Assembly: GCA_029856105.1 (NCBI GenBank)
Contig: JAHQWH010000213.1
Span: 1 to 15,811, forward strand
Length of the DNA stretch: 15,811 bases
From: Promethearchaeia archaeon
Lineage (GTDB): Archaea; Asgardarchaeota; Lokiarchaeia; Sigyniarchaeales; SOKP01
Reading direction: 5' to 3'
Part shown: positions 1 through 15,811 of the stretch, piece by piece
Layout of the letters: each line of letters begins with the position of its first letter
How positions within the stretch are numbered: position 1 is the stretch's first letter
The notes under the pieces: generated by a model
The model's input: only the letters and a program-made list of their open reading frames with translations
Told to the model about the DNA's origin: nothing
Database searches by the model: none
Made by a program: the position numbers and the translations under genes

Positions 1-192
1 ACTAATTTTTACACTTTTCTATAAAAATAGAAACAATATAAATAAATAGGTCATAGTTTATTTTAATTATAAGATCATTTTAACATCTATACAATTATTT
101 TAGGTATAAGTTTGATTTTGATTTACAGGGCATTATTCTATAATTAGCAAATTTTTTACATTTGCAAAAAAAAGTTTTGAAAGGTTTAAAAC

Positions 193-1371
193 ATGAAAAA
201 ACAATTAAAAGCAATTTTAATTATTGGAACAATACTAATAGCTGCAGCTGTTTCTCTATCAATTATATTACCTTATTTTAAGCAATCGCCACAGACCCCT
301 ACTTCTAAGGGATTAGTTTATATTTATGTTGATTCAGCTATACACGATACACTATTTTCAGAAATTACTCAATATAAGCAAGATGTAATTGATCAAGGAT
401 ATTCAGCAGAATTAATCGCTTGGTCATCTAACAATGTATCGGAGTTTAAACAGCACTTAGTTAATACCTCATCTCAAGGATTAATAGGCGCGGTTCTAAT
501 CGGTGACTTACCTTATGCTATGGCAAGGCATTGGGATTCTTTGCATGGTCGATATTGGAATTATCCTTGTGATTTATATCTTATGGATTTAGATGGGAAT
601 TGGTCTGATACAACTATCCCTTATGGGATATTTGATATAGATCAAAACGAACACACAAATGGAACTGGTGATTGGACTCCAGAAATATGGATTGCACGAA
701 TCAGCCCTAGCTCTATCGGAGCAACGGGATTCAATTACACAGCAGCTTATAAAAATTATTTTGACCGCAATTATAAGCTAAGGCATGGTTTTACTAATAG
801 GTCTCACAAAGCATTACTATACATAGATGATGATTGGTCAAGTTATAAAGATGAATGGATAAGCAATTTTACAGCTTATACCGGTAGCGAGATCGATTGT
901 TATTGGAATAATCCAACTACAACAGCTGCAAACTATATGAATAATATATCTACAGTTAATTACGAATTTGTCCATTTGCTTGTTCATTCATGGCCAACTC
1001 AGCATCTTTTTGGACCTCCTTCCAATCTTGGATCTGAGGGGATTTTAACGCACGAAAACATATATGGAAACAGTACTTTACCGTTATTTTATAATTTATT
1101 CGCATGTTTTTCATGTAATTATACCCAAGTTAACAATACTGGAACATATTATCTGTTTTCAGATAATACTTTAACAGTAATTGGGAGTTCAAGAGATGGC
1201 GGTATGGATTTATATCAACCCTTCTATGACAGTTTAAACCAAGGAGCAATAATAGGCGATGCTTTTGTAACATGGTTCCATAATCCTGAAATTGTTAAGT
1301 GGAATAAGGAATTATTATATTATGGAATGACAATATTGGGAGATCCTCTTCTTACGATATACATGACATAA
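193..1371 (+). CDS. Membrane-anchored/secreted peptidase C25 (gingipain)-like cysteine peptidase, clan CD caspase-hemoglobinase fold
   Basis: N-terminal MKK plus hydrophobic helix. Motifs resemble C25: AVLIGDLP, CDLYLMDLDG, PEIWIARI, putative catalytic His (LLVH265SW), putative catalytic Cys (NLFAC305FSC) and C-terminal ILGDP. Many N-x-S/T sequons. Confidence 0.75.
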   Translation: MKKQLKAILIIGTILIAAAVSLSIILPYFKQSPQTPTSKGLVYIYVDSAIHDTLFSEITQYKQDVIDQGYSAELIAWSSNNVSEFKQHLVNTSSQGLIGAVLIGDLPYAMARHWDSLHGRYWNYPCDLYLMDLDGNWSDTTIPYGIFDIDQNEHTNGTGDWTPEIWIARISPSSIGATGFNYTAAYKNYFDRNYKLRHGFTNRSHKALLYIDDDWSSYKDEWISNFTAYTGSEIDCYWNNPTTTAANYMNNISTVNYEFVHLLVHSWPTQHLFGPPSNLGSEGILTHENIYGNSTLPLFYNLFACFSCNYTQVNNTGTYYLFSDNTLTVIGSSRDGGMDLYQPFYDSLNQGAIIGDAFVTWFHNPEIVKWNKELLYYGMTILGDPLLTIYMT

Positions 1372-1394
1372 TTTCAGCTTTAAATTAGTAAGAT

Positions 1395-1430
1395 TTTATT
1401 TATTTTTTTTTTTCAAACTTTTTTTTTTCT
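1395..1430 (+). terminator. Oligo(T) archaeal-type terminator after the C25-like gene
   Basis: Long T runs about 25-60 nt downstream of the stop codon. Inferred from position only. Confidence 0.5.
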
Positions 1431-1476
1431 GTAGTTCCTTAAAACTTTTTTTATCTCTCTTCATGTATTTTAATTA

Positions 1477-2133
1477 ATGGGAAAAAAAAAGAATATAATT
1501 TTAAGTTTTGACTTAGATAATACACTAATCGATAATAGAGAAGGGATCGTTAACTCATTCAACTACGCCTTGAAAAAATATAATCTCCCAGCCCTCGAAA
1601 GAAACAAGATAGAAAAAATGATTGGTACCCCCTTAGACGACATGTTTGAAGAAATTTCTGATATTAATCCAAAAAAGTTATCAACAGCTTTCCGCGAATA
1701 CTACGGAAAAAAAGGGATTTATCAAGCAACGCTATTACCTGGAGTTAGAGAAAAATTAGACGAATTGAAACAAAAATCTTTTACCCTGGGCGTGATTACT
1801 TCAAAAAAGCAAGAAATGGCAGTAAGGATTATCAAGTATTTAGGAATTTTTGGCTATTTCGAATATATCTTGGGCGAAAGCAAAAATATCAAGAGCAAAT
1901 TAGACCCTAATCTGAAATCTTTTTTATTGAATAAATATAAAGGCTTTTTTATCGTGATTATTGGCGACCACCCTAAAGATAAAGCTCTTGCCGAAAATCT
2001 ACGCGCACCCTTCATTGGTGTTTTAACAGGAAACCATTCAGCTGCAGAATTACAACAAAATAGCACTATAAAAACTCAAATTTTAAGTAGCGTTAAGGAG
2101 ATAAAACCTAACTTAATTTATTCCTTATTATAA
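1477..2133 (+). CDS. HAD-superfamily hydrolase (phosphoglycolate phosphatase/Gph-like)
   Basis: Motif I FDLDNTL, motif II ITSK, motif III K (SKLDP), motif IV IGDHPKD, with a helical cap segment. Confidence 0.9.
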   Translation: MGKKKNIILSFDLDNTLIDNREGIVNSFNYALKKYNLPALERNKIEKMIGTPLDDMFEEISDINPKKLSTAFREYYGKKGIYQATLLPGVREKLDELKQKSFTLGVITSKKQEMAVRIIKYLGIFGYFEYILGESKNIKSKLDPNLKSFLLNKYKGFFIVIIGDHPKDKALAENLRAPFIGVLTGNHSAAELQQNSTIKTQILSSVKEIKPNLIYSLL

Positions 2134-2183
2134 AATAACAACATATTAAAAATAGTAAAAAAAGTAAAAAAAAGAATTATACT

Positions 2184-3638
2184 TTATTCCTTCAAATCTT
2201 CGTATATCTTCATAAATTCTTCGGGATTCCATTGTTCCTGCATGTATTTGCCAATTCCAGAACTATCTCTTGGCCCTACAACAACAAAGCAATCAGCTTC
2301 GTCTTCCAAAGCTCCACTTAAACGCGCAGCCATACCTGGAATAATCAAAATACGATGGTTAACCTTATCAAATATTTTAAATTCTTTTGTTGCTTCACCA
2401 ATCGATCCTGCGCTAAATTGGCCTCCTGCGACGGCTGACTCAATTCCTATACCTTCAGAATCTACAACCAACAGATACGCGTCTAAATTCGCCCCTTTTA
2501 TGTCTATTTCAACCGGAATTTTTGTTAGACGGTAATTTGAAGTCACAAAAATAGGAGAGGTCTCTGTTGGCTCTCCAATTTCGTATATTCCAGGATCTGC
2601 AGCGGGATAAATGCGAGGATCGCTAAAAATACTCTGCCTCAACGTCATCATTGCCAGAAGAGCCCAAATATCTTCTTTTCTTTTACCAGTATGCAAAACA
2701 ATGAGGTTAGTATCAATTGACTCCATGATCACTCCCATAATTAATTCTTGGTATTGATGCTCCCAGAGTTCCTTATCATCGTCAGTTTTCACTTGACTCC
2801 AATAAGCAGCGGGAACCCCCATAACAGGCCAACCTGCATTCATGTCTTCTTTATCAATCGCAGAAATTCTCAATTGCATTATATTATCGTAAGTTAATGC
2901 TACATTGCCTGGACCAAAAACGGTCATAGCGTCTAATACTATACCTGTCACGCCTAACTTCTGTAAGGTGGCACTTAAGGACAGCAATTCGTCTAAATCG
3001 CTTGAAACGGCCGCTACAGGCAAATCATTCTCTACGGCAAATTTTCCAATTTGTTCCCATGAATCTTTGGTTGCGGCGTAGAGTAATGGTTTTTTATCTT
3101 TAATTTCAGCAGCAGCAGCTAACAAAATATCTGGATTCAAACACGCTAACATTACGGGAAGATCTGAAACCTCTGTTAGTTTCGAAGCAGCGAGTTTAAA
3201 TTGCTCAGCGTCTCCAGATACGCATCTTAGAGCAATACCGCTAACTCTAAGAACATCTCCCATTCTTTCGAGTTTTACTTCGCTTAAATATTTAGCAATT
3301 TCTTCTAAATCATTTTCATCGTCGGCGATTTGTATAAAAATTTGTGTTTCATTATAATACGTGAGCTGATGGCGATTAAGAACTTCTTCACCCCCAACTA
3401 TACATTTTCTTTCTCCTATTCCAATAAATACTGGTTTTTGTGGAGGTGTCGTAATTTTTATTAACTTCTCGCGTTTTTTTGCCTGTTTAGGATCTTGCAT
3501 AAGGTGCGAACAGTCCTGCACCACAACGTTTCTTTCAAGCAAGTCTGTTGCAAAAGCCATGCATGTATCTCTACCACAGTCTTTACAATTACTTTTATCT
3601 AAAAGCGCATAGATCTCTAATGGACTCGGTCTTGCCAT
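2184..3638 (-). CDS. cdhE: Acetyl-CoA decarbonylase/synthase subunit gamma (corrinoid iron-sulfur protein large subunit)
   Basis: N-terminal [4Fe-4S] motif CKDCGRDTC-x16-C, then GGEEVL-RH, and a C-terminal corrinoid domain (SPIFVTSNYRLT, LLVVDSEG, LIIPGMAARL, VVVGPRDSS). SD-like GGAGAAAGTGA precedes the ATG. Confidence 0.95.
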   Translation of the reverse strand: MARPSPLEIYALLDKSNCKDCGRDTCMAFATDLLERNVVVQDCSHLMQDPKQAKKREKLIKITTPPQKPVFIGIGERKCIVGGEEVLNRHQLTYYNETQIFIQIADDENDLEEIAKYLSEVKLERMGDVLRVSGIALRCVSGDAEQFKLAASKLTEVSDLPVMLACLNPDILLAAAAEIKDKKPLLYAATKDSWEQIGKFAVENDLPVAAVSSDLDELLSLSATLQKLGVTGIVLDAMTVFGPGNVALTYDNIMQLRISAIDKEDMNAGWPVMGVPAAYWSQVKTDDDKELWEHQYQELIMGVIMESIDTNLIVLHTGKRKEDIWALLAMMTLRQSIFSDPRIYPAADPGIYEIGEPTETSPIFVTSNYRLTKIPVEIDIKGANLDAYLLVVDSEGIGIESAVAGGQFSAGSIGEATKEFKIFDKVNHRILIIPGMAARLSGALEDEADCFVVVGPRDSSGIGKYMQEQWNPEEFMKIYEDLKE

Positions 3639-3781
3639 TTCACTTTCTCCAAATTTGTTTTCTTTAAAATTTAATAATTTTAAAATATATAATATTTAGT
3701 TTAGTCAAATTTTACAATTAAAATTTGGTTTTTTGAATATTTATAAAATAATACATAAGAAAAAAAAAATTAGCATCTTAT

Positions 3782-5062
3782 TCAAAATGACTTCTTTTTG
3801 GGTTTAACTTTTAATAGTATCAAGGGAGCTAATGCCAAGGTTGATAGCACTCCGGCGATTAAAATTAAGGTCTCAATCGGAATAAAATCAGACAAAAATG
3901 TTCCTAATGGAATGAAAATTACACAAGAAAACGCGTATGCTAGTTTTAAACATTGGAACAAAAAAGTTTTGTGTTTTCCGTTGTTCGCTATTGTCATCAT
4001 TAAAGAAATATAATTCAATAAAAATATGCCTGCCAAGACTTGAATTATACCTTGGACGATCATCATAAGGAAGAAATCAGAGAAAGCCATTACGAAAGTT
4101 AGAAAAATGTAAATCACTACTGTAATAATGATAATCTTCTTTCTTTTTTTTATTTTAAATGTGCTATCAAGAGCGGAATTTTTCTTGGAAATTTTTTGCC
4201 CAATAATCCATCCTGAAATATTTAGTAATACAAATACGATATAAGATATAGAATATAAGCTAAAACTCTGTTGTCCAAATTTATTAAAAATCCAAGAAGA
4301 GAACGGAAATTGGTACAGTTTATCGCTCCAGATTAATAAATATGATAAGAATAGAAAGATAAAATTAAATGGCGAAACTTTCGGCGAATTCATAACTTCA
4401 TTTTGAAGATCTTTTTTTTTTTGGAAACTATTACCGAAATCTTTTAGGAAAATGATCGATACAAGCATGGGTAGAGATAATAAAACTCCAATTAAAAAAA
4501 ACATATTCCAGTGATTTAAATCAAAAAGATCGCTTAATACAAAAAGAAAAACAATAGAAGGTATAAACGAGCCGATATTTGAGGATATATTGATAGTCAC
4601 TAAATTATTATCCTTGATAATTTCATTTGCAGAAAGATCGATTATCATTTTACTGATTCCTACCTTTATAATTCCTTGACTTAGTAGATTTAAAGCTAAA
4701 AATAAACCAAAAATAGGTAAGTAGTTGCTTGAAAAGATTGATACAAAAAAGCTAATTAGAAAAAATAGTATCGAGAATGAGATTATAATCTTTTTGTTTT
4801 TCACAAATTTATCGAATGAAAATCCTAAAACGGGGTCTATGAATAATACTGAAAAAGCAAGAATTTGTATGAACGCCAGTTCACTCCTTACCACTGAACG
4901 TATGTTTAGCAAATACAAGGGTAGATAGACCGCTAAATAAATCTGTATTATGCTTAGCGTGAAATAAATTATAAAAAAGCCGATGTAATTCCGTTTTTTT
5001 ACTCTTGCTATTTCTTTTAAGTCCAACACTAAAATATTCGAGCTGGTTTTTAAACACTTCAT
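3782..5062 (-). CDS. Major facilitator superfamily transporter (about 12 TM helices)
   Basis: Two blocks of about 6 hydrophobic segments separated by a hydrophilic loop. Motif A-like GFSFDKFVKNKK follows TM2. The true start may be the internal GTG/TTG near 5030. Confidence 0.8.
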   Translation of the reverse strand: MKCLKTSSNILVLDLKEIARVKKRNYIGFFIIYFTLSIIQIYLAVYLPLYLLNIRSVVRSELAFIQILAFSVLFIDPVLGFSFDKFVKNKKIIISFSILFFLISFFVSIFSSNYLPIFGLFLALNLLSQGIIKVGISKMIIDLSANEIIKDNNLVTINISSNIGSFIPSIVFLFVLSDLFDLNHWNMFFLIGVLLSLPMLVSIIFLKDFGNSFQKKKDLQNEVMNSPKVSPFNFIFLFLSYLLIWSDKLYQFPFSSWIFNKFGQQSFSLYSISYIVFVLLNISGWIIGQKISKKNSALDSTFKIKKRKKIIIITVVIYIFLTFVMAFSDFFLMMIVQGIIQVLAGIFLLNYISLMMTIANNGKHKTFLFQCLKLAYAFSCVIFIPLGTFLSDFIPIETLILIAGVLSTLALAPLILLKVKPKKKSF

Positions 5063-5096
5063 TATATCGGTTAGATTTTTAATTTTATTTTATTCT

Positions 5097-5110
5097 CTTA
5101 TAAATATAAA
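5097..5110 (-). promoter_or_regulatory. Putative TATA box of the MFS gene
   Basis: Minus strand reads TTTATATTTATAAG about 35-48 nt upstream of the ORF start. The AT-rich background limits confidence. Confidence 0.4.
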
Positions 5111-5144
5111 ACGGGTTTATTAAACTACACAATAAATCGTTTTA
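5107..5144. repeat. Imperfect inverted repeat TAAAACG-GG-TTTATT N9 AATAAA-T-CGTTTTA
   Basis: Arms read directly from the sequence. It adjoins the putative MFS TATA box. Confidence 0.5.
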
Positions 5145-5208
5145 CGATGTTTTAGAAAGCTATTATGATCAGTAACAGAAAATTATAGATATCTTCCATC
5201 ATACTTAC

Positions 5209-5276
5209 AAAAAAAAGAGAGAAAATATGGTTTTCCCGCATATTGGGTATTACAAACACCCAAGCGGGAGAAACAT
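5209..5276 (-). terminator. GC-rich bulged stem-loop followed by U-tract (structured RNA element or terminator)
   Basis: Minus strand: AUGUUUCUCCCGC-UUGGGUGU-UUGUA-AUACCCAA-UAU-GCGGGAAAACCAU, followed by AUUUUCUCUC and U8. Confidence 0.65.
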
Positions 5277-5306
5277 TTAAGGAGTAGCATCAGCAGTTCC
5301 TGGCAT
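5277..5306 (-). CDS. Putative 9-aa micropeptide MPGTADATP
   Basis: ATG CCA GGA ACT GCT GAT GCT ACT CCT TAA, preceded by GAGGTAAAGGTAAG (SD GAGGT 9 nt upstream). A TATA-like element lies upstream and a hairpin plus U-tract downstream. Confidence 0.45.
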   Translation of the reverse strand: MPGTADATP

Positions 5307-5353
5307 CTTACCTTTACCTCAAATTATTTTGATGAAATATAAAGTGAATATTG

Positions 5354-5363
5354 TATATATAAG
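5354..5363 (-). promoter_or_regulatory. Putative TATA box (CTTATATATA) for the micropeptide/hairpin transcript
   Basis: About 48 nt upstream of the ATG. An archaeal start site about 25 nt downstream would leave a short 5'UTR containing the SD. Confidence 0.45.
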
Positions 5364-5527
5364 CCTGCTATCTTCAACCAACGGTTTCTAATAGCATTAT
5401 ACTGTCTCACAATGTTTATTCATAAATAGATATAAAAACATAGAGAAAAAAGCAAAAGATAAAGATAAACTTGGATATTTTAAACAAAAAAAACCGATTA
5501 ATCATTAAATCTAAAAATTTATGGCAT

Positions 5528-5542
5528 GAAAAAGTATTTAAG
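5528..5542 (+). promoter_or_regulatory. BRE plus TATA box (GAAAAAG-TATTTAAG) of the 1200-aa gene
   Basis: Purine-rich BRE-like element directly 5' of a TATA-like sequence, about 58 nt upstream of ATG 5600. Confidence 0.5.
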
Positions 5543-5599
5543 TTCTTATGCTAAATAAATTCATAATTCTAACGCGTATTTATCTATAAAATTGAATAT

Positions 5600-8500
5600 A
5601 TGGCAAAATTAAATATCGATTTTTTAATAGAAACTCCAATCAAAAAAATTCTTGAAAAGATTGATTACTTATTTCGTGAACTTCTTCAAGAGATTGAATC
5701 CTATCTCAATATTCAAGTAATTTACCCTAAAATAAACATTATTCTAAAAAATGAAACATCAATTTCAGGTGTTGCTGATAATATTTTTTCCATAGGAGTT
5801 GAAAGATCTTATAATAATGATATTCTCAGTATTAAAATATATTCAGATTTTTATCAATACATCCAATTTATTATGCTCCGGGAAGCGTATAAATGTTTTA
5901 TTCCTCTCTTCGCCAATCAAATTAAAATAATTGAAATTTTCATATATCAAAAGGTATTGATCGATCTCAATAAACTAAAATCTAGCAATGAATGGAACCG
6001 GCTCATACGAGATAAATTGGTTAATTATGAGTTCATTTCGGGTGAGTTTGATCGTTTAGAGAATTTTTTGAAACGTGAAAGTACTGAGAATATTGATAGT
6101 CCCTTTATATTTTTCTTTAAATATATTAGAAAAAATATCCAAATTATTGGTGAAAAAGAACAAAATTTTTACGACACATTTTTCAAGGAATTTTTATTAG
6201 TTTCCTCAAAATCATTATTCAACGATGAAATAATAGAAACAATAAGAGTTCTTGATAAAATCTTCAATCATGTAAAATATTATTCTGCATTGTTGGACTA
6301 TCAAGATTATTTTACCTTATTTAAAGAAAAAGGAGTGATTGAAACTAATCTCAAAAAATTTACTGAAAACATGCAATGGATTAAAAATTTTAGTTCTATA
6401 TCTCCAAGTTATAAAATAAACTGGCCGTCATTAAATATACTCTCAATAAATTGCTGCATTAAATTCAACCCCATTATTAGGAGAATCGAAATACTCAAAT
6501 TCATTAATGAGCTGCCTTTTTTTGTTCTTCTTAAGGAATCCAGAAATAGTTTCGGATTCGAAATTGATGGATATTTTGTATTACCTCAAATTTATATTGA
6601 TGACTTAAAAATTTATCTCGAGAAGTTTAGAGATAATGGATATGCTCTTCATATTAAATTGACCATAGTTGAAAAATCTGAAGCCTTTGTTAACTTAAAT
6701 TATTTTCGAGAATATCACGACAAAAAAACGATTGTTAATAGAAATCACAAGTTCTATGACAGAAAATATGAATTAGATTTTTCGATTGCTTATAGTAAAG
6801 AAGTAATTATGCCTAGTTTGTCTCTTCTCGATTGGTTAATAATTGATAGAATTCGTTACTTTTCACAAACGGGATTTAATTTCGAAAGAAGAGCTGGAGC
6901 TATTAAGTTGTTAAAGACTGATCTTATTAACGAAATTATTAGTCAAAGGAAATTTATTACTGACTTAAAAACAAATTTGTTAATCATTCATTCCTCGTTA
7001 AAACTCAGGAATAATTTTCTTGAGTTTTTAAAAACAAATGAATCCTTTGGATTCTTTTACATTAGAAACATACTTAATGATTATACCTTTACTTTAAACT
7101 TAATTAAAGATATTTTAACTAGAAATCCTTCTATTAACAGTGTCTTCAAATTTCGTGAATATTTTAAAAAACAAGGAGTCTCGAATTCAATCGAAAATAA
7201 CATTACATTTAAAAATTCAACGATTAAAAAGGCGATTTTTAACCATTTCCTACCGTTATATTTTGAATCAAAGGAGAATTTTGAGGAAGAAATTAGCAAA
7301 TATACTAGTTTTTTTAAAGTAATTAGTTCTTGTTACGATTTGAAGATCTTCAACCTTCAATCTATTCGCACGATTGTAAAAGACAGTTCTTTGATAAACA
7401 CTATTTATAAATCTAAGGAAGATAAATTAATGAGTTCATATGAGAGCTATCAATTATCCGATCTAACATATAAATTAATTGAGGAAAAGCTAGATTATTA
7501 CCTAAATAGCAAACCACCTGTAATTAAACCAAATTTAATAGGAAATATTATAGTTTCAATGGTTCAAGTTTTTATTGTTTTATTAAAAAATAACGAGGAA
7601 ACTATAGAAAATCTTAAAAAAATATCCTTTATATCAAAAAGAATGTGGAGCAGTTCTGGAGAAATACTTAATATTGTATTATTAATTCCATACTTAAGTA
7701 GCAGTGAAAAGAGGACATTTATTTCATTGTTGATTAATATTTTTAAAGAAAATCTGATTAGTATTAAAAGATATTTGTGGAGCCACTTTCAACAAGCATT
7801 TTCAAGGAAAGATTTTTATGATTTAGAACAAAAAGAATTCTTTTATACTAAAGATCTTTTTAGGCAATTTTTCCTAAATGTGAGAAGCATTCTTGGTGAA
7901 GTACAAAAACCACTCTCAGAAACCCAAACTATACAGCAAAATATATTTTGGTCAAAAGAAGAAGACATTTCTCATTTAATTAAATCTGTCGAGGATCGTA
8001 TTAGAGGGGAGCATGTAGATTTAAGCGTTGATAAGTTAAATGATCTTGTCGAATTCAATAATAAATTAAAAGAAAATTTGTTAAATCTTAGCAAGTTTAA
8101 AGAATCCCAAGAAAAGTTTTTCTTCAAAAACTACATTAAATCAATCAATTTTATACCCTCGTTTCAGAAATTCGGAATGAATCAATATTTCTTGTATTTT
8201 TATCCTACCGATATCAATCAAATTGATTTTAAACTTTTAATGAATAACTCTTTCCAATCTATTAGTTATCCCGCTCAGATTGATAACTCTAATTCTTTCT
8301 TATGCCAATATATTTTTCCTCTTCGCAATCCTGGTATATCTCCGTATTTAAATTGGTTAACTAAATCGAAAAAAATCGTCAGAGAATATTGTTTATTTTT
8401 CGTTAAAAAATTGTATCAAATACTGCATTTCAATTACAATTTAAGTTCAGATGGTTGGGATCTCGACCCAAATCGATTCAAAATCTACTTTCAAAACATA

Positions 8501-9202
8501 TTATTTAACCCCGATTATAAGGTTCAAATTCCAGATATGAAAGAATTTAACATTGGAGACTTGAACGTTTCAGATTATTTTGGTACCGATTCCCTCGAAT
8601 TTAAGGCGTTATCTCAAATTTACAATAGGCAATCGTTAGATATTAAATCGTATTTAACGAGGCGATATTTCACTCTTATCAATCATATAACTGAGCTATT
8701 GAAAAAAAGGTTGATTTTTCCCTATATCTCCGTTAAAAACTTAGATTTGATAGAAGAAATCACTATTATTTTACCGAATGTTAAACAAGAGCTAAACGAG
8801 ACAATAATTAAAATCTTCAGTTTTTTCAATGTTGGTTTCATTTATGAAGTAGAAGGGGAGTATTATATTCACGGATTTGACGAAGTGATAAAATTTGAGA
8901 ACGGCCTGATGATAAAATTACGCTTACCAGATTGTCAACTCGACGAATTTGAGAAGCTTTTCGATCTAATTTTTGAATATTTGGAGATCGATCATTACCT
9001 TGTTTTAAACGATTTAGTCGACGGAGAAAACTTAATTAGATCAACATTTAAAGAGTTGAAATTCTTAGAGACTTACAACCCTTTAACCAACCTAATTTGG
9101 AATGAAAAAGATAAAAAATGGCGGAACCATAAATTATTTAACGAAAATTTTGAACCTGTTTACCCAAACTTATTTTACGGAAAGGATAAATACGATTTAT
9201 AG
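5600..9202 (+). CDS. Large (1200 aa) hypothetical cytoplasmic protein, probably tandem degenerate Lrp/AsnC-like (wHTH plus RAM/ACT-like) modules
   Basis: Long ORF with no TM helices. Recurrent Lrp-type linkers (SPSYKINWPSLNI, SINFIPSFQKFGM, LIFPYISVKNLDL) are followed by beta-alpha-beta patterns ending in xxP. Lrp-like first helix LSLLDWLII. The CDS is certain; the domain call is inference. Confidence 0.7.
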   Translation: MAKLNIDFLIETPIKKILEKIDYLFRELLQEIESYLNIQVIYPKINIILKNETSISGVADNIFSIGVERSYNNDILSIKIYSDFYQYIQFIMLREAYKCFIPLFANQIKIIEIFIYQKVLIDLNKLKSSNEWNRLIRDKLVNYEFISGEFDRLENFLKRESTENIDSPFIFFFKYIRKNIQIIGEKEQNFYDTFFKEFLLVSSKSLFNDEIIETIRVLDKIFNHVKYYSALLDYQDYFTLFKEKGVIETNLKKFTENMQWIKNFSSISPSYKINWPSLNILSINCCIKFNPIIRRIEILKFINELPFFVLLKESRNSFGFEIDGYFVLPQIYIDDLKIYLEKFRDNGYALHIKLTIVEKSEAFVNLNYFREYHDKKTIVNRNHKFYDRKYELDFSIAYSKEVIMPSLSLLDWLIIDRIRYFSQTGFNFERRAGAIKLLKTDLINEIISQRKFITDLKTNLLIIHSSLKLRNNFLEFLKTNESFGFFYIRNILNDYTFTLNLIKDILTRNPSINSVFKFREYFKKQGVSNSIENNITFKNSTIKKAIFNHFLPLYFESKENFEEEISKYTSFFKVISSCYDLKIFNLQSIRTIVKDSSLINTIYKSKEDKLMSSYESYQLSDLTYKLIEEKLDYYLNSKPPVIKPNLIGNIIVSMVQVFIVLLKNNEETIENLKKISFISKRMWSSSGEILNIVLLIPYLSSSEKRTFISLLINIFKENLISIKRYLWSHFQQAFSRKDFYDLEQKEFFYTKDLFRQFFLNVRSILGEVQKPLSETQTIQQNIFWSKEEDISHLIKSVEDRIRGEHVDLSVDKLNDLVEFNNKLKENLLNLSKFKESQEKFFFKNYIKSINFIPSFQKFGMNQYFLYFYPTDINQIDFKLLMNNSFQSISYPAQIDNSNSFLCQYIFPLRNPGISPYLNWLTKSKKIVREYCLFFVKKLYQILHFNYNLSSDGWDLDPNRFKIYFQNILFNPDYKVQIPDMKEFNIGDLNVSDYFGTDSLEFKALSQIYNRQSLDIKSYLTRRYFTLINHITELLKKRLIFPYISVKNLDLIEEITIILPNVKQELNETIIKIFSFFNVGFIYEVEGEYYIHGFDEVIKFENGLMIKLRLPDCQLDEFEKLFDLIFEYLEIDHYLVLNDLVDGENLIRSTFKELKFLETYNPLTNLIWNEKDKKWRNHKLFNENFEPVYPNLFYGKDKYDL

Positions 9203-9331
9203 TTAATATTCTGTTTTTTCTTCTTATATTAAAATTCATAATTAAACGACAATTTTGTATGTATTATTCTTGGACTAAACGCTTTGAATTTCAAAAAAAA
9301 TAAAACAGTTCAAATTTTTTCTTATATATAA

Positions 9332-10783
9332 ATGGCACCCGAAGATTTTAACTTTGATAAGTTCGACACCTTATTTCACCCTCAACACATTGCGTTTGTA
9401 GGGGCGAGTGAAAAATCGAGATTTGGTGCGATGCTTTACTTACCTGCCTTTAAAAATTCAAAATGGGCAGATACATTTTACCCGGTTAATCCAAAGTACG
9501 AAAATGTGCTTGGTTGGAAGTGTTATTCTTCAGTACTTGATATTCCTTATCCTATAGATACAACTTATATCTCAGTGAAAACAAAACATATTCCTGCTGT
9601 TTTAAAAGAGTGCGTACAGAAAGAAACCCCTTGGGTCGTAATATTTGCTTCCGGATTTTCTGAAACCGGAGATTCATCTGGATTAAAATTAGAGCAAGAA
9701 TTAAAACAAATAATCAAAGGTACGAACACAAGAATAATAGGTCCTAATTGTTTAGGCCCATATAACGCCACCGAAGGAATGGCGTTTACGTTTAGCGCTA
9801 AAAACAATACTCCTGGTTCTATTTCGTTTATGTCTCAATCTGGAGGACACATGAGCCAATTATTAGATGTAGGATATAAGCGCGATCTCAGGTTCAGGTA
9901 TGGAGTATCGTTTGGAAACCAGTTAGATTTAAATTGTGTTGATTTTTTGAAACATTTCCGTAGAGATCCGAAAACTCGCGTTATTTCAGCTTACCTAGAA
10001 TCGTTTGGCTCAGCAATGGGTAACGATTTCTTTTTAGAGCTCAAAAAAGCAACAAAAATTAAACCCGTTATTATTTGGAAGGGTGGATACACGAAAGATG
10101 GTTCTCGAGCAGCTTTTTCGCACACAGGTGCTATAGTAAGCGATCTAAGATTATGGCGATCAATGGCTAAGCAAACGGGGGCGATAATCGTTAAAGACAA
10201 CGAGGAATTTTGGAATGCAATGAAAACCTTCGAATTGTTATTCCCAAAATATATACCAGGTGGAAAAAAAGTAGGAATAATAACTCCTGGTGGGGGATCT
10301 AGCGTAAACACAACAGATCTATTCAACTTTTTTAATTTAAAAATCCCAGAATTAACATTAGAAACTCAGAAGAAAATCAGTGAGATTTTACCATATGAAA
10401 ATGTAAACATTAGAAATCCCGTAGATTTGGGAGCCTTAGGGTTTGTTGTGGATGTATTTGCTGAATGTATAGAAATTGTAGCCACTGATCCTAACATTGA
10501 CATTGTAATAATTCCATTATGGCCGCATTTTATATATAACCATGTATTCAAACGTATGATAAAAATCCAGAAATCTACTTTGAAACCATTCGTTTTTTGT
10601 ATGCCCAGTATAGCTGATTCTTCTGAACTTGCGCAACGATTTTCTTCTGTCAAAAAAATTCTACACAAGGAGAGAGTTCTGTATTTTTTCTCGTTAAGAG
10701 ACGCGGCGAGAAGTATATCGCTTTATTGCGATTATATTGAATTTTTAAAATCGCACAACTACGACATTTCAAATGAAAAGTAA
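9332..10783 (+). CDS. ADP-forming acyl-CoA synthetase alpha-type subunit (CoA-binding protein, AcdA family)
   Basis: IAFVGAS, YPVNP, ASGFSE, RIIGPNCLG, SQSGG, SFGNQLD, YLES, WKGG, phospho-His motif AAFSHTGA and NPVDL. No ATP-grasp beta domain is fused. Confidence 0.9.
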   Translation: MAPEDFNFDKFDTLFHPQHIAFVGASEKSRFGAMLYLPAFKNSKWADTFYPVNPKYENVLGWKCYSSVLDIPYPIDTTYISVKTKHIPAVLKECVQKETPWVVIFASGFSETGDSSGLKLEQELKQIIKGTNTRIIGPNCLGPYNATEGMAFTFSAKNNTPGSISFMSQSGGHMSQLLDVGYKRDLRFRYGVSFGNQLDLNCVDFLKHFRRDPKTRVISAYLESFGSAMGNDFFLELKKATKIKPVIIWKGGYTKDGSRAAFSHTGAIVSDLRLWRSMAKQTGAIIVKDNEEFWNAMKTFELLFPKYIPGGKKVGIITPGGGSSVNTTDLFNFFNLKIPELTLETQKKISEILPYENVNIRNPVDLGALGFVVDVFAECIEIVATDPNIDIVIIPLWPHFIYNHVFKRMIKIQKSTLKPFVFCMPSIADSSELAQRFSSVKKILHKERVLYFFSLRDAARSISLYCDYIEFLKSHNYDISNEK

Positions 10784-10791
10784 AAAAGGCA

Positions 10792-11082
10792 CTAAACCTT
10801 TTTTATAATTTCTTTTAAATATTGTTTCATAAAATGTCTTTGAATACTACAATAATCTAATTTTTGATTATTCGTTAACGAATTTAATTCTTTATTGTTT
10901 AACAAGAAAAAGTGGACATCTATAATTTTTCCGTAAACTTTATTCATTTTATTGAAGATTTCTTGTTGTTTTAAGTGAATAAAGTCTTTTTCCTCAAAAA
11001 CTGGCAGATTATATAAATCGTTTGCTTTAATACTATCAAAAGTTCCTATAGAATAATTGATATTAGCTTTTCCTGAACTCAA
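10792..11082 (-). CDS. Small hypothetical protein (96 aa, TTG start)
   Basis: Fills the gap convergent to the acyl-CoA synthetase gene. SD-like GTGAT lies 5 nt upstream of TTG, with a TATA-like element near 11107-11115. No recognisable motif. Confidence 0.55.
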   Translation of the reverse strand: MSSGKANINYSIGTFDSIKANDLYNLPVFEEKDFIHLKQQEIFNKMNKVYGKIIDVHFFLLNNKELNSLTNNQKLDYCSIQRHFMKQYLKEIIKKV

Positions 11083-11363
11083 TTTTTATCACACTAATAT
11101 TATTAATTTATATATCTAAACCTCAAGTTTTTTGAAACTGTAGTGTTGTTTCTAATTTTGTCGGTAATCTGCAGTAATACCTACTAAATTGTCTATTTTT
11201 GAGGGTAGTTAATGCTATAATCTCAATTTTGTATATACTATTGTTTTTCGTATATTAAATTTAGAGCAAATTATATGTTAAGGGGTTAATAATGAGGGGC
11301 TAAAACCTAATATAATTCTGGAGGCAATATTTAAAATAAATTAAATAAATTATCTGAATTATT

Positions 11364-12380
11364 ATGGGTTTTATTTCTGGATTGAAAGGAGTGTTTAAAA
11401 AACGTATTTACATATTTATTATATTTTCCTTTATTCTTACTTGGGTATTGATATTAACTAACTCTTACTTGAAAAGCGAGTTACTTAGATCGTTTATAAT
11501 TATTTTCGGGGGAGGTTTTTTATTCTTTAACGTAATTTTATTTTGTGTATCCTTTTTTAAGAAACTTGATGATTTGAACAAATGGTTTTTCATCATCTGC
11601 TTTATAATTGCGATCGTTCTAAATGTATTTCTCTCTGATACAATTTTTAACCCAACATCTAATTTCTATTTACTAATTCTCCTTAATGCAAATCTGTTTT
11701 TTACTTCTTTTTTTGCCTTCAAATTATGTATGGATTCTGCTACTAAAGTGGATGATTATTTGTATAAAAATAAAAGATCTAGAATAGTAATTCGGATTGT
11801 AGAATTTTGCGTTTTTGGTTTTTTAGTTTGGTGGTTTTTTAGAATCACGATAATCTTTTTCAGTAATACTCCATCTGATTTGTTCACTTATGTAATCCGA
11901 ATTTTACAAATAATGTTTTGGGTAAACATAGTTTTAATGGTAGTCGTGCTATTTCGATTGATTATAACGAAAAAGTTATCGGCGTTCATTACTTTATTTT
12001 TCCTGTTAACTCTCTTCTACGCTTTATATATCCTTTTTGATTTATTGTTTGGAATATTTTTTAGTTCTGAATCGGGAGGCCCAATTTACGCTGTTATATC
12101 GTTTATTATTGACATTTTATTATTTTTATACATCTTAGGGATCGTTTATAGTAGAGTTGATTATATACAAGCTAAATTAAAATTATTTAAAGTCGATACA
12201 ATTGCTTTATTTCTGATAACAATGAAAATTTATGCTCAGGTTTCAAAAACCTTCGCAATAACCATTTCTGTAGAATTACAAATCTTCCAAGCAACGTGGT
12301 TATTTCTGATATTCATGTTTTTTAACCTAATATTCGGAATTCACTCAATTTTCACTCACAAGTATGGAAAAGGTAAGTAA
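11364..12380 (+). CDS. Polytopic membrane protein of unknown function (about 9-10 TM helices)
   Basis: Alternating hydrophobic segments with short basic loops. No family motif recognised. Confidence 0.8.
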   Translation: MGFISGLKGVFKKRIYIFIIFSFILTWVLILTNSYLKSELLRSFIIIFGGGFLFFNVILFCVSFFKKLDDLNKWFFIICFIIAIVLNVFLSDTIFNPTSNFYLLILLNANLFFTSFFAFKLCMDSATKVDDYLYKNKRSRIVIRIVEFCVFGFLVWWFFRITIIFFSNTPSDLFTYVIRILQIMFWVNIVLMVVVLFRLIITKKLSAFITLFFLLTLFYALYILFDLLFGIFFSSESGGPIYAVISFIIDILLFLYILGIVYSRVDYIQAKLKLFKVDTIALFLITMKIYAQVSKTFAITISVELQIFQATWLFLIFMFFNLIFGIHSIFTHKYGKGK

Positions 12381-12483
12381 AAGAATATATTAATAATCTA
12401 ACAAATTTTTAAGTAGAATCTTTAAATAAAAAAACGAACTTTAGGTTTTAGTATTTTAAATTAAAAAGAAAAAGAAAATTTAT

Positions 12484-12999
12484 CTAATACATCTCTTCTT
12501 TAGTAAATAACAAACTGAAGCAACCGTAGAATACGCCGTTTACAGCTCCGCTTATCAAAAAGGAGATTAATACTAAGATTGGATCTGCTACAGGGATACC
12601 ATAATACATTAAGGTTGTTGAGCTTATGAAGGCTAATATTCCCAAAGCTACAGCACTTATCATAGCTGTAATCATCCACCCCCCAAAACTACCCCCTTTA
12701 TTCTCTCCCATTCGTCCTGCGATTATTGATGCAACAAAGGGAGAAACAATGAATCCAATACTTTGAATTAGCATAGGAACAGTCATTCCCAAGGTAATTT
12801 GAACAAAGAACGAACTTTCAGACCCCGGCATACTAACTAGAGGCCCGAAAAAAATCAGCAATATTATTAATGGATCACTACTAATATCACTAAAAAGAAG
12901 GTTTAAATTAGTACTAATAGTTTCCGCTATTATTACAAACAGAAAATTTAGACCTATCAACGCAAGCAAACTAAATCCTAGAGCTTTACCTAATCCCAT
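12484..12999 (-). CDS. Small Gly-rich membrane protein of unknown function (about 4-5 TM helices)
   Basis: Hydrophobic helices with small-xxx-small motifs (GGSFGG, GAVNG, GVFYG). Confidence 0.8.
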   Translation of the reverse strand: MGLGKALGFSLLALIGLNFLFVIIAETISTNLNLLFSDISSDPLIILLIFFGPLVSMPGSESSFFVQITLGMTVPMLIQSIGFIVSPFVASIIAGRMGENKGGSFGGWMITAMISAVALGILAFISSTTLMYYGIPVADPILVLISFLISGAVNGVFYGCFSLLFTKEEMY

Positions 13000-13058
13000 A
13001 TTTGTCAGACTCTTTTTTTCAAATTATATATCTTAATTAATTTACTTCTCTTATGTAT

Positions 13059-13078
13059 ATAGCTATTGTAATAGCTAT
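13059..13078. promoter_or_regulatory. Palindromic putative operator ATAGCTATT-GT-AATAGCTAT
   Basis: Perfect 9-bp inverted arms with a 2-nt spacer, each containing the palindrome ATAGCTAT, in a divergent intergenic region. Confidence 0.55.
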
Positions 13079-13197
13079 TTAAATTTATTTAACTTAAAAC
13101 ATAAAAGTCATAATTTAATAAACATAAAAAATAATCGTGACAAAGGTTTTCAATCAATAAATTTCAATAGTTTATTAATAATTATGAAGACAAGGTT

Positions 13198-14241
13198 ATG
13201 AAGAAGAATCAAAATAAATTTCCAATTGGTAAGCTTAAACATAAGTTTCTCTTAAAGATGTTAAAGAATTTTGTTTCTAACACTCACTTAAAAGATGACA
13301 GGGTCATTATGGGGTCTAGTATTGGAGAGGATGCTGCCGTTATTGATATGGGCGATAATTACTTAGTTGCAAAGACCGACCCAATTACTTTTGCTACAGA
13401 CGCTATAGGATACTACGCCGTAAATGTCAATGTAAACGACATTGTGTGTACTGGAGCTACTCCGAAGTGGTTTCAATCAACAATTTTACTACCTAAAAAA
13501 CATACAGATGAATATTTGATTGAAAACATTTTCAAAAACATTCATGATACTTGCAAATCTTTAGGGATTTCTGTAATAGGCGGCCATACTGAGATTACTT
13601 CAGACCTTACTAGACCAATTATTGTTGGCTCTCTTCTTGGCGAGGTTGAAAAGGATAAATTAGTTTTGACATCTGGAGCAAAAGCAGGAGACTCAATAAT
13701 ACTAACCAAGGGGATATTTATCGAAGGCACATCCATTATAGCAAGAGAAAAGGAGAATATATTAAAGGATAAAGGGTACAGCGTCGAATTTATTGAAAAA
13801 TGTAAAGGTTACCTATATAATCCTGGTATCAGCGTCTTCAAAGAAGCCTTATTATCTAACGATAATTTTAAAATTAATTCTATGCACGACCCTACTGAAG
13901 GTGGTCTATTTTGTGGCATCGCGGAAATGGCAATTGCCTCTAATTTAGGGGTTTTAATCGAAAAAACCAAAATAAATGTTTTACCAGAACCAACGGAGCT
14001 AAGTAAAGTTTTTGATTTAAATCCGTATAACACAATATCTTCCGGTTCTCTTTTAATTTCAATTGAAGAAGAATTTACTGCAGATTTAATTAATATATTG
14101 AAGAAAAACGACATCAATTCTGAATTGATTGGCAAATTTACTTCGAAAAAAGAAAACTATTTGGTAATAGACGATAACAATAAAAAGACGCGAATGTTTT
14201 ATACAGAAACTGACGAAATCACAAAACTATTTAATTTTTAA
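13198..14241 (+). CDS. AIR synthase-related (PurM-like superfamily) ATP-dependent protein, HypE-like but lacking the HypE C-terminus
   Basis: GKL, IGEDAAV, KTDPIT, NVNDI, GGHTE, MHDPTEGG and ISSGSLL motifs. The protein ends TDEITKLFNF. Confidence 0.88.
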   Translation: MKKNQNKFPIGKLKHKFLLKMLKNFVSNTHLKDDRVIMGSSIGEDAAVIDMGDNYLVAKTDPITFATDAIGYYAVNVNVNDIVCTGATPKWFQSTILLPKKHTDEYLIENIFKNIHDTCKSLGISVIGGHTEITSDLTRPIIVGSLLGEVEKDKLVLTSGAKAGDSIILTKGIFIEGTSIIAREKENILKDKGYSVEFIEKCKGYLYNPGISVFKEALLSNDNFKINSMHDPTEGGLFCGIAEMAIASNLGVLIEKTKINVLPEPTELSKVFDLNPYNTISSGSLLISIEEEFTADLINILKKNDINSELIGKFTSKKENYLVIDDNNKKTRMFYTETDEITKLFNF

Positions 14242-14400
14242 AATTTTATTTTTAAAATAAAGTCGTTATTATTCAATTAGCTAAGATTTTTATTTTTGAA
14301 TTTTCATTATATTTTTATATTTAAGGGTTGTTTACTAAATTTAAATAAATTTACTAAAATTATATTATTAAATTAATATTTGATTTAAAGTGGTTAAAGA

Positions 14401-15811
14401 ATTACGAATAAAGAATTAAGTACCATTCTGAAATCCATAGGAGAAAAAGCGAAAGGGAAAGAATTAACTCTTAAGATAAATTCCCATGTCTTTTTTGATA
14501 TTTTAAAAAGCAAAGGAGCTTTATTTAGTGATTTTAAAGAAAGGATTATAAAAGAATGGGAACAGTTCAAATTAAAAAATCAAAAAAGAGTAATTCAAAA
14601 AACTTATAGTACGTTTTTTTTTCAATATTTTCATAACTATTTAGAATTTTATTTAGAAAACTTTTGCGGATTTGATACAAATTCCTTAAAATTAATTGCT
14701 AAGGAGAAGATTTCTGACGATAACTTATTTTTAGAGTATAATTATTATTTATCCCTCGAAGAGATGGAATCATTTAACGAATTTGCTGAAAATTTTAAAG
14801 ACACTTCAGATGGAGTTACCTCCCCGTTCGGATATTTATATTTAGTGGTCTCAATATTAGGAGTAATTCTGAGAAAACTAACTGGAGAAAAATTTTATAT
14901 TGTTTTAGACGCGGCTGTTATAAAAAACGGCGATAGTAGCAATACTCTAACTTCGTTGATAGTTATTAAAAATAGTAATGATGAGTTGTTTGATAATTAC
15001 TATTCTTTTGCTCTTTACTACTTTCTGAAATACTTTGAAAATGTTCCAGAAGCATATTCAGACAAACTATTAAAAGGTAGGGATAGGTTATATGAAATTG
15101 CTTTAGAGGAATACTCTTTTGCTAAAGAAAAACTCGTAGATTTATTATATTATTTCTATAAGAAGTGTAATCTGCTTCAGAACTTTTCGCCTGTATTAGA
15201 TTTTTTAAATTTCGTCAATTCAAGAGTAGAAGACTCAATTTTTCCTAAACTAGATATAATAAAAAAAGAGTTCCTACAGAATTTTGACTATACAAATGAG
15301 AAAAAGAACACATTTATTAGAATTTTCGATTACATTGACAAGAAAGCCACATTATACTCAACATTCCAGGCTAATAATTTACCGTCTCAAAAAAATCAAT
15401 TTAATTTATTTCTATTGTATATGAAATATTACTTTGGTAGTGGAAGTTTAGAAGCTTTGGAAGTAAGCGATTTATTATTTTTACCAGGAGAGTTTAGGAA
15501 CAGATTAAATAAACTTAATAAGACATTGGATGACCCAATTAATGCTAAAAATATCAAGGAAATCCAAGATTTTATGGACATTTTTTCAATTTTAACAAAT
15601 GTAGAACATCCAAATGTATTTTTTGAAAAAATCTTTAAAAAAAATATTTCACAGATTAATTACGACTTTTTAAGAACATTTTTACGAAGCTTGAATATAA
15701 GTATTACTCGTTTAATTGCCCATGAAAACAAGGTTTTATCTGAAGACCCAAATAACGAGCTTTTAACTTTTAAAATAGTTGTTGACCACATATGCCGAAT
15801 GCTCTACACCC
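14401..15811 (+). CDS. Hypothetical protein, 470 or more codons, truncated by the window end (not in the supplied ORF track)
   Basis: Translated by hand, the frame is stop-free from 14398 to the end (ITNKELSTILKSIGEK...TSPFGYLYL...YFGSGSLEALEV...VDHICRMLYT). The first ATG is at 14764, so the start is uncertain. Confidence 0.85.
   Translation, partial: MTNKELSTILKSIGEKAKGKELTLKINSHVFFDILKSKGALFSDFKERIIKEWEQFKLKNQKRVIQKTYSTFFFQYFHNYLEFYLENFCGFDTNSLKLIAKEKISDDNLFLEYNYYLSLEEMESFNEFAENFKDTSDGVTSPFGYLYLVVSILGVILRKLTGEKFYIVLDAAVIKNGDSSNTLTSLIVIKNSNDELFDNYYSFALYYFLKYFENVPEAYSDKLLKGRDRLYEIALEEYSFAKEKLVDLLYYFYKKCNLLQNFSPVLDFLNFVNSRVEDSIFPKLDIIKKEFLQNFDYTNEKKNTFIRIFDYIDKKATLYSTFQANNLPSQKNQFNLFLLYMKYYFGSGSLEALEVSDLLFLPGEFRNRLNKLNKTLDDPINAKNIKEIQDFMDIFSILTNVEHPNVFFEKIFKKNISQINYDFLRTFLRSLNISITRLIAHENKVLSEDPNNELLTFKIVVDHICRMLYT

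Follow-up and report, generated by a model that had tools for sequence, protein, structure and literature searches.

The closest analogue of the element described here is mccA, the peptide gene of microcin C in E. coli and relatives, where a hairpin terminator following a seven-codon open reading frame (ORF) leads to an abundant, ribosome-bound and very stable transcript (Zukher et al. 2014; PMC4231749). Our element is a nine-codon ORF for the peptide MPGTADATP on the minus strand of a 15,811-nt stretch of DNA from a Promethearchaeia archaeon (hereafter the window; contig JAHQWH010000213.1 of assembly GCA_029856105.1, positions 1 to 15,811). Like mccA, it would be a directly translated ORF of fewer than ten codons that has its own Shine-Dalgarno (SD) sequence and is itself the gene; a hairpin with a probable terminator stands right after it, and a gene of the major facilitator superfamily (MFS) of transporters lies nearby, as MccC does in the mcc operon. 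Features that define mccA are nevertheless missing. Two further bacterial systems are alike in layout only. The nine-codon leaders of cat, cmlA and erm share the ORF length, a strong SD, a hairpin directly after the ORF and, in cmlA, a downstream MFS gene. In the Rap-Phr/RRNPP systems of Firmicutes, a protein of about 400 amino acids is followed by one to three tiny peptide genes on the same strand, a genome holds several such paralogous cassettes with differing peptide variants, and the peptide is retained among orthologs, an arrangement that resembles sister copies of our element.

Comparison with related genomes makes it very probable that the nine-codon frame is a genuine gene with a transcript of its own, and we consider it likely that it is a stand-alone translated micropeptide gene whose product matters. 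We infer its transcription and translation from this comparison, as well as that selection keeps the peptide product rather than the act of translation. The parts of the unit had been proposed by an initial annotation made from the sequence of the window, and all of them are present on the minus strand with agreeing coordinates:

5363-5354, minus strand: TATA-like box CTTATATATA, probable promoter of the mini-gene, with a start site predicted near 5332-5330.
5320-5316, minus strand: SD sequence GAGGT with a 9-nt spacer to the ATG; AGGT is invariant in 20 aligned copies.
5306-5277, minus strand: nine-codon ORF ATG CCA GGA ACT GCT GAT GCT ACT CCT TAA, reading MPGTADATP.
5274-5230, minus strand: two-part hairpin beginning 3 nt past the stop codon, whose outer stem (TTCTCCCGC/GCGGGAAAA) hardly varies and whose inner stem covaries.
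5225-5209, minus strand: T-rich tract ending in T8 (5216-5209), probable archaeal intrinsic terminator of the mini-gene.

In the 20 aligned copies, ATGCC, the CC of codon 9 and the stop codon are as invariant as AGGT, and the first two positions of codons 2 and 9 show no entropy, with 0.9 and 1.4 bits at their third positions. Substitutions counted along a minimum spanning tree of 65 distinct ORFs were 11 synonymous versus 1 nonsynonymous at the anchor codons 2, 3 and 9 (p = 5e-5 against one third), and 11 synonymous versus 59 nonsynonymous at codons 4, 5, 7 and 8, where synonymous changes are rarer than neutral (p = 0.02). Because the anchor codons change mostly synonymously and the others mostly nonsynonymously, the peptide appears to be a fixed frame with variable positions. 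The orthologous spacers encode, among others, MPGTADATP, MPGTANTTP, MPATCDTTP, MPGEHGIAP, MPGQHDVIP, MPGNSGICP, MPGCHDAVP and MPGTADIAP; deletions of 3 nt yield 8-mers such as MPNLAITP and MPNSGIIP, and in one copy the stop is shifted by a single codon (MPANCDTIPK). Frame-breaking indels are absent within the ORF, and indels of 1–2 nt do occur in the SD spacer and in the hairpin loop. Across species, orthologous cassettes retain their peptide through synonymous change (e.g. MPGQAGAVP in five genomes). SD, ATG, stop and frame are thus conserved in the orthologous spacers of many species and in paralogous copies, which supports the translated micropeptide postulated by the initial annotation. 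Its expectation of synonymous-only changes applies to nearly all changes at P2, G3 and P9 and fails at the hypervariable residues 4, 5, 7 and 8, and the quasi-symmetry it had seen in MPGTADATP is not kept in the peptides of relatives and lacks support.

The frame also recurs as a family. The pattern ATGCCNGGN7GN8CCNTAR matched 67 times in 14 of 42 genomes of its genus, which belongs to the Promethearchaeia (Lokiarchaeia), with 7 matches in this genome and 13 in one relative, versus 2 matches for the reversed control. Had the ORF arisen by chance in an AT-rich spacer beside an ordinary terminator, this would agree with the commonness of short ORFs and T-runs at 28% G+C and with a promoter consensus scan in which sites were no commoner than in shuffled sequence, although the models of that scan (sigma-70, bacterial terminator) are of the wrong type for an archaeon and uninformative. 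Set against the excess of pattern matches over the control and the conservation of the unit across species and paralogs, such an origin has a negligible probability, and we regard a chance ORF as excluded on comparative grounds. In 119 other genomes of the class, the pattern gave 5 matches versus 5 for the control; one of these is probably real, since it lies 122 nt behind a gene for a DUF885-like protein, the neighbour of many sister units.

Across related genomes we collected 83 units with distinct flanks, of which 73 encode nine-mers and at least ten are located in this genome. Among the nine-mers, M1, P2 and P9 are present in all 73 and G3 in 68; position 4 is mostly Q (30), E (17) or T (10), position 5 is free, and positions 6, 7 and 8 favour G (39), D (21) and E (6), T (21), I (19) and A (16), and V (17), I (15), T (11) and G (8), respectively. 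The family consensus is M-P-G-[QET]-x-[GD]-x-x-P. All four Gly codons and all four Pro codons occur at the fixed positions, and the stop is TAA in 72 of 73. Weak matches of a covariance model built on the 20 copies are divergent paralogs with unrelated flanks and hairpin sequences and the same peptide frame, such as MPGQKDAIP and MPGQADAIP (in tandem, contig C98), MPGQAGAVP (C219) and MPHGGEVIP (C134). The window copy fits the family layout, i.e. an ORF of 8–11 codons that starts with M-P and ends with P-stop, an SD-like motif, a hairpin 0–3 nt past the stop and a T-run; it also fits the family position upstream of an MFS transporter gene (the alternative being behind a DUF885-like gene), a position rule that is not absolute. 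Two species with an ortholog of the window's MFS gene (MFS-A) and no match to the RNA model have upstream mini-ORFs that read (ATT)PGNDAICPRY and MNPGLAGGPPRY, each followed by a stop codon; because both keep the P-G-x5-P core, this core is taken as the constant part.

The initial annotation had suggested searching for paralogous units of SD, short ORF and hairpin, and a second copy as well as many further ones were found in the genome and genus. The unit of about 243 nt (5198-5440) has a second copy with 93% identity on contig C158 of the same genome; the two are identical from the upstream TATA-like region through the 5' hairpin arm, and the inner stem differs by compensating changes. By blastn, 10 of 24 congeneric genomes contain the element, and none of 16 genomes of other families does. 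The covariance model yielded 31 strong matches (at least 88 bits) in 18 of the 42 genomes of the genus, with one to three per genome. In about a dozen species, the unit is found in the orthologous spacer that separates the MFS gene from a divergent gene for a 1200-amino-acid protein ("giant gene"). Scanning one genome per prokaryotic species for the exact pattern gave 66 loci, only 17 of which have the full unit including hairpin and T-run; 16 of these carry the title Promethearchaeota or Promethearchaeia archaeon and one that of a Nanopelagicaceae bacterium. The remaining 49 loci are scattered matches in bacteria and methanogens that lack hairpin and T-run, a distribution that places the window in an Asgard archaeon. 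The contig with the bacterial title (L084, DATKTW010000107.1, contig end; 'Candidatus Nanopelagicaceae bacterium') bears a mini-gene for MPGCHDAVP, an MFS-A ortholog and a CdhD-like gene, and is probably a mislabelled or mis-binned Asgard contig, since it is identical to the same-genus genome G011.

The hairpin at 5274-5230 has a predicted energy of -22.2 kcal/mol versus -9.6 ± 2.2 for shuffled sequences (z = -5.8; 0 of 200 shuffles as stable). In the 20 aligned copies, 89.5% of cells are paired versus at most 53% with the partner columns slid, nine pairs changed on both sides and 0 of 500 shuffles attain the covariation score. Across the family, the stretch from stop to T-run is predicted to be more stably folded than shuffled sequence (median z = -3.8), pairing begins 0–3 nt past the stop in 67 of 83 units, and a T-run of at least five is present 20–70 nt past the stop in all 83, which is partly due to the selection of the set. 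G·U cells outnumber A·C cells (16 versus 9), weakly favouring the minus strand as the RNA strand. A bulge-helix-bulge (splicing) reading of the hairpin was rejected by eye because only one 3-nt bulge is present, on either side, and a 4-bp helix flanked by two bulges is absent.

Such structural selection would also be expected if a small structured RNA were the functional product and the ORF merely loaded stabilising ribosomes or was a by-product. The near invariance, within the subfamily of MFS-type copies (subfamily A), of the outer stem and the AAAACCATATTTT that follows it fits this idea, as does the fact that the element is more conserved (75–89% nucleotide identity) than the adjacent MFS protein (52–57% amino acid identity among MFS-A orthologs). 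However, no Rfam family matched positions 4900-5750 even at E <= 10, divergent paralogs without a common hairpin sequence keep the M-P-G-x5-P frame, and wobble-only variation at P2, G3 and P9 as well as codon-sized indels are unexpected for a non-coding RNA, so that we rate an RNA product as quite unlikely.

The proposed signals for expression of a micropeptide gene are in keeping with the organism. In this genome, GAGGT-type 5-mers (GGAGG/GAGGT) are enriched at a distance of 5–11 nt before the first ATG of long ORFs (197 versus 55 in an inside-gene control), with a peak at 6–10 nt, which makes GAGGT plausible as an SD sequence here; SD-type initiation evidently serves part of the genes in this genome. 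Archaeal promoters are TATA boxes, usually about 26 nt from the transcription start, and oligo-T alone terminates transcription. TATA-like words in the 83 family units peak 52–55 nt and 36–39 nt upstream of the ATG, from which a 5' untranslated region of about 22–26 nt is predicted. This recurrence some 50 nt upstream of the ATG across the wider family speaks for the TATA-like box as the promoter of the mini-gene, as the initial annotation had assumed.

The mini-gene occupies a 537-nt spacer separating the MFS gene from the 1200-amino-acid ORF, 215 nt upstream of MFS-A, and is flanked by the following features:

5208-5198, minus strand: conserved tail GTAAGTATGAT 3' of the T-run, common to copies in differing contexts in the alignments.
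5440-5364 (77 nt), minus strand: upstream region common to MFS-type (subfamily A) copies, with TATA-like TTTTTATATC at 5438-5429 and an inverted repeat or predicted hairpin at 5396-5366.
5132-5115, minus strand: promoter-like motif of the MFS gene, TTGTGTAGTTTAATAAAC, which includes a TATA box; conserved in nine of nine aligned co-directional MFS loci and again in genome G018.
5062-3782, minus strand: MFS-A transporter of 426 amino acids (Pfam MFS_1, E = 7.5e-13) with about 12 membrane helices predicted from hydropathy.
5600-9202, plus strand: divergent 1200-amino-acid protein (giant gene), syntenic neighbour upstream, with no Pfam family at E <= 0.1.

The location of the mini-gene raises the alternative of a cis-acting leader peptide or upstream ORF, in which a slow M-P bond and slow termination at Pro-stop would set read-through of the hairpin and T8 into the MFS gene and the peptide would be a stalling signal only. 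In bacteria, cat and cmlA are controlled by nine-codon leaders, and termination is known to be slow at Pro-stop. In all 14 loci with an MFS-A neighbour the mini-ORF lies upstream on the same strand, and the two further species mentioned above are alike; the stop is so close to the hairpin, 3 nt away, that a terminating ribosome must melt the outer stem, and RNAalifold offered a possible alternative pairing, GGGAAAA/TTTTCCC. This candidate helix was rejected, as it lacks covariation and is no better than slid controls, and mutually exclusive RNA structures of the attenuator type, for which it was the only candidate, were not found. In cat, cmlA and erm the hairpin sequesters the ribosome binding site of the regulated gene, whereas here the MFS start is 140–190 nt past the T-run of the mini-gene, behind T8 and a TATA motif of its own. 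That motif, TGTG[GT]AGTTTA[TA]AAG in MFS-A genes, is located after the mini-gene T-run and is probably a transcription factor B recognition element (BRE)/TATA promoter. Archaeal termination, moreover, requires only oligo-T, which the unit has in its own T8.

The contexts of other copies argue in the same direction. Among the 57 units with enough flanking sequence for neighbours to be counted, 20 adjoin an MFS gene: 14 are upstream of and co-directional with MFS-A, and six face a convergent paralog (MFS-B, 28–30% identical to the window MFS). Others face a soluble protein of 455 amino acids or a Ras-like GTPase, and many copies have no co-directional downstream gene, unlike the cat, cmlA and erm leaders. 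A further 24 units, described below, lie downstream of a gene and not upstream of one. We therefore hold control of the MFS gene by a leader to be unlikely. Of the roles that the initial annotation had offered for the peptide (signal, precursor or leader), that of leader comes out as the least likely in view of the unit's own terminator, the MFS gene's own promoter and the several convergent copies.

Every MFS-A ortholog whose upstream spacer was read has a mini-ORF there (about a dozen species), and orthologs of the 1200-amino-acid protein are divergent neighbours in 12 loci. In four species (L011/L035, L028, L102 and L116), a mini-gene followed by the convergent MFS paralog (28–30%), not by the co-directional MFS-A, stands between the giant gene and the CdhD-like gene; at this locus one transporter has taken the place of the other. 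Homology among paralogous copies begins within 5440-5364, and flanks farther upstream are dissimilar. At the place of the subfamily A repeat, more distant copies have a different inverted repeat (AAATCGC...GCGATTT), and the region may serve to bind a regulator or as a second promoter. The ATTGTG word of the MFS-A motif recurs in this upstream region of the mini-gene (~5412-5407).

The other recurrent neighbour of the units is the DUF885-like protein of about 400 amino acids ('cluster 0'), behind which 24 of the 57 units lie at a distance of 90–550 nt on the same strand. These units stand singly or as tandems of two or three that repeat about every 210–220 nt. Tandem arrays were seen in genome G000 (C98:8010-8250 and C157:1596-1846) and also in G005, G050 and G051, with a different peptide in each unit. 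In this genome, each of the four DUF885-like copies has one or two mini-ORFs behind it, and from genome to genome the counts of DUF885-like paralogs and of mini-genes go together. Further neighbours of units are a DUF7064/Rv3169-family protein, an M29 aminopeptidase, an alpha/beta hydrolase, a radical SAM protein, a Ras-like GTPase and glycosyltransferases.

The DUF885-like protein, for which at least 905 homologs were counted, matches Pfam DUF885 (PF05960) weakly: 33 of 85 relatives match with a best E of 4e-6, and the score of the protein itself stays under the cut-off (17.3 versus 32.4 bits). Residues H227, E228, Y230, P231, G232, H233, H234, E252 and E267 are conserved in the alignment of the 85 diverse relatives and form a nearly invariant HExYPGHH...E motif. 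PDB sequence searches with the protein gave nothing meaningful. An AlphaFold2 model built from this alignment reached a predicted local distance difference test (pLDDT) score of 95, and its top Foldseek matches were the DUF885 structures 3O0Y, 3U24 and 3IUK (E = 1.5e-5 to 2e-3), followed by MATCAP, M32 carboxypeptidases, ACE/ACE2 and M3 oligopeptidase, all gluzincins that act on short peptides or on C-termini. The protein thus shares the fold of DUF885 and M32/M2/M3 gluzincin peptidases and keeps the H-E...H-H...E motif; in contrast to the DUF885 structures it is about 150 residues shorter, TM-scores are only ~0.5 and its activity is predicted from the fold. Compared with Rap-Phr/RRNPP cassettes, the partner has a gluzincin fold and not tetratricopeptide repeats, the nine-residue product has neither signal sequence nor pro-region, and the window copy adjoins an MFS gene and not the partner protein.

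The differences from mccA are of a similar kind. The mccA peptide has seven residues and ends in Asn, which is adenylated by MccB, whereas all 73 nine-mers end in Pro. Pfam detected no ThiF-like MccB among the 11 window ORFs, none occurs among the neighbours of sister copies, and the gluzincin partner replaces MccB/D/E. mccA is bacterial with one copy per operon; the present family is archaeal with at least ten dispersed copies per genome and has no sequence homology to it. A further alternative is that the peptide is the precursor of a modified natural product, with a P-G-x5-P core that is cyclised or otherwise modified, exported by the MFS transporter and antibiotic-like or cofactor-like. 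Several features would suit such a role: the many copies in the family, the fixed frame around a hypervariable core, the adjacent MFS gene, the deficit of synonymous changes at the variable codons (11/70) and one copy upstream of a radical SAM gene; microcin C is a formal precedent, as are the proline-flanked MSDIN cores of amatoxins. Yet a modifying enzyme is not a regular neighbour (the radical SAM gene is found in one context only), the Pfam survey of the 11 window ORFs gave no YcaO, lanthionine or cyclase family besides the lack of ThiF/MccB-like proteins, and the peptide has no leader or follower sequence for enzyme recognition. We see only a slim probability for this precursor role.

Several points weigh against a stand-alone micropeptide gene as well. 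Peptide products of nine codons are rare, and we know of none from archaea. When all interior codons are pooled, 29 of 92 changes are synonymous, which does not differ from neutral (p = 0.19); the coding signal depends on anchor codons, frame and paralogs, and appears only when anchors are split from variable codons. The orthologous unit in genome G020 (L190:1217-1252) has ATT at the position of the ATG with GAGGT intact, which would be either a non-canonical start or a decaying copy. Some copies (C219, C134 and G009b) adjoin neither an MFS nor a DUF885-like gene. Finally, it is solely from fold and gene order that the gluzincin is predicted to act as a peptidase and that peptide, gluzincin and MFS are predicted to come into contact.

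For the favoured micropeptide gene we propose the following course of events. The TATA box at 5363-5354 would drive a monocistronic minus-strand RNA of about 110–125 nt that ends at T8, and a ribosome binding at GAGGT would make MPGTADATP. By analogy with mccA, the hairpin 3 nt past the stop would probably protect this very short mRNA and shape its 3' end. Met1 is probably removed, because Pro at the second position permits removal, and an octapeptide P-G-x5-P with a proline at each end would result, in which four framework residues are fixed and four positions variable. The proline ends would resist most exopeptidases and, in variants with extra N- or C-terminal residues, would set the end-points of trimming. 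The MFS transporter may move the peptide across the membrane, as its substrate or ligand, and in the sister cassettes the cognate gluzincin may trim, degrade or recognise it. As the fixed partners are an MFS transporter or a DUF885-like gluzincin, a peptide that is the substrate or ligand of the MFS and the target of the cognate gluzincin is the most likely working model. A wider proposal, namely that these are Asgard-specific proline-capped octapeptides (P-G-x5-P), the first directly encoded archaeal peptide genes of fewer than ten codons, with hypervariable positions that set specificity and with a cognate gluzincin (as processing enzyme or receptor) or a dedicated MFS for each peptide, for cell-cell signalling, kin recognition or antagonism, is possible but doubtful.

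Searches of the literature on Asgard small ORFs and DUF885 peptidases returned nothing on such peptide genes, and the family of 83 units is unannotated in Asgard genomes because gene callers ignore ORFs so short. Should the peptides be produced, we would know of no smaller archaeal gene products, and taken with their dedicated transporter and peptidase-fold partners they would suggest communication or chemistry based on peptides in the prokaryotes most closely related to eukaryotes. With its many paralogs, fixed anchors and variable positions, the family is a clean comparative test case in which conservation alone can validate micro-ORFs, and for metatranscriptomic and peptidomic work on sediment enrichments it supplies concrete targets, namely exact masses and a predicted RNA about 120 nt long.

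Some observations concern the rest of the spacer and the window. Directly after the T-run begins a 16-codon hydrophobic ORF, MMEDIYNFLLLIIIAF with a stop codon (5202-5152, minus strand), whose frame is not clearly kept, since relatives hold a version that is 22 nt longer and reads MMEDIWLSK.... The tail 3' of the T-run, GTATGATGG...CTGA, contains words (ATGATGG ... CTGA) loosely like C and D boxes, a loose likeness only to C/D-box small RNAs. The other genes of the window include a Peptidase_C25-like ORF (193-1371), a gene for CdhD/corrinoid Fe-S protein of the acetyl-CoA pathway (2184-3638), which carries an N-terminal Fe-S motif, and a gene for an ADP-forming acyl-CoA synthetase-like protein (9332-10783).

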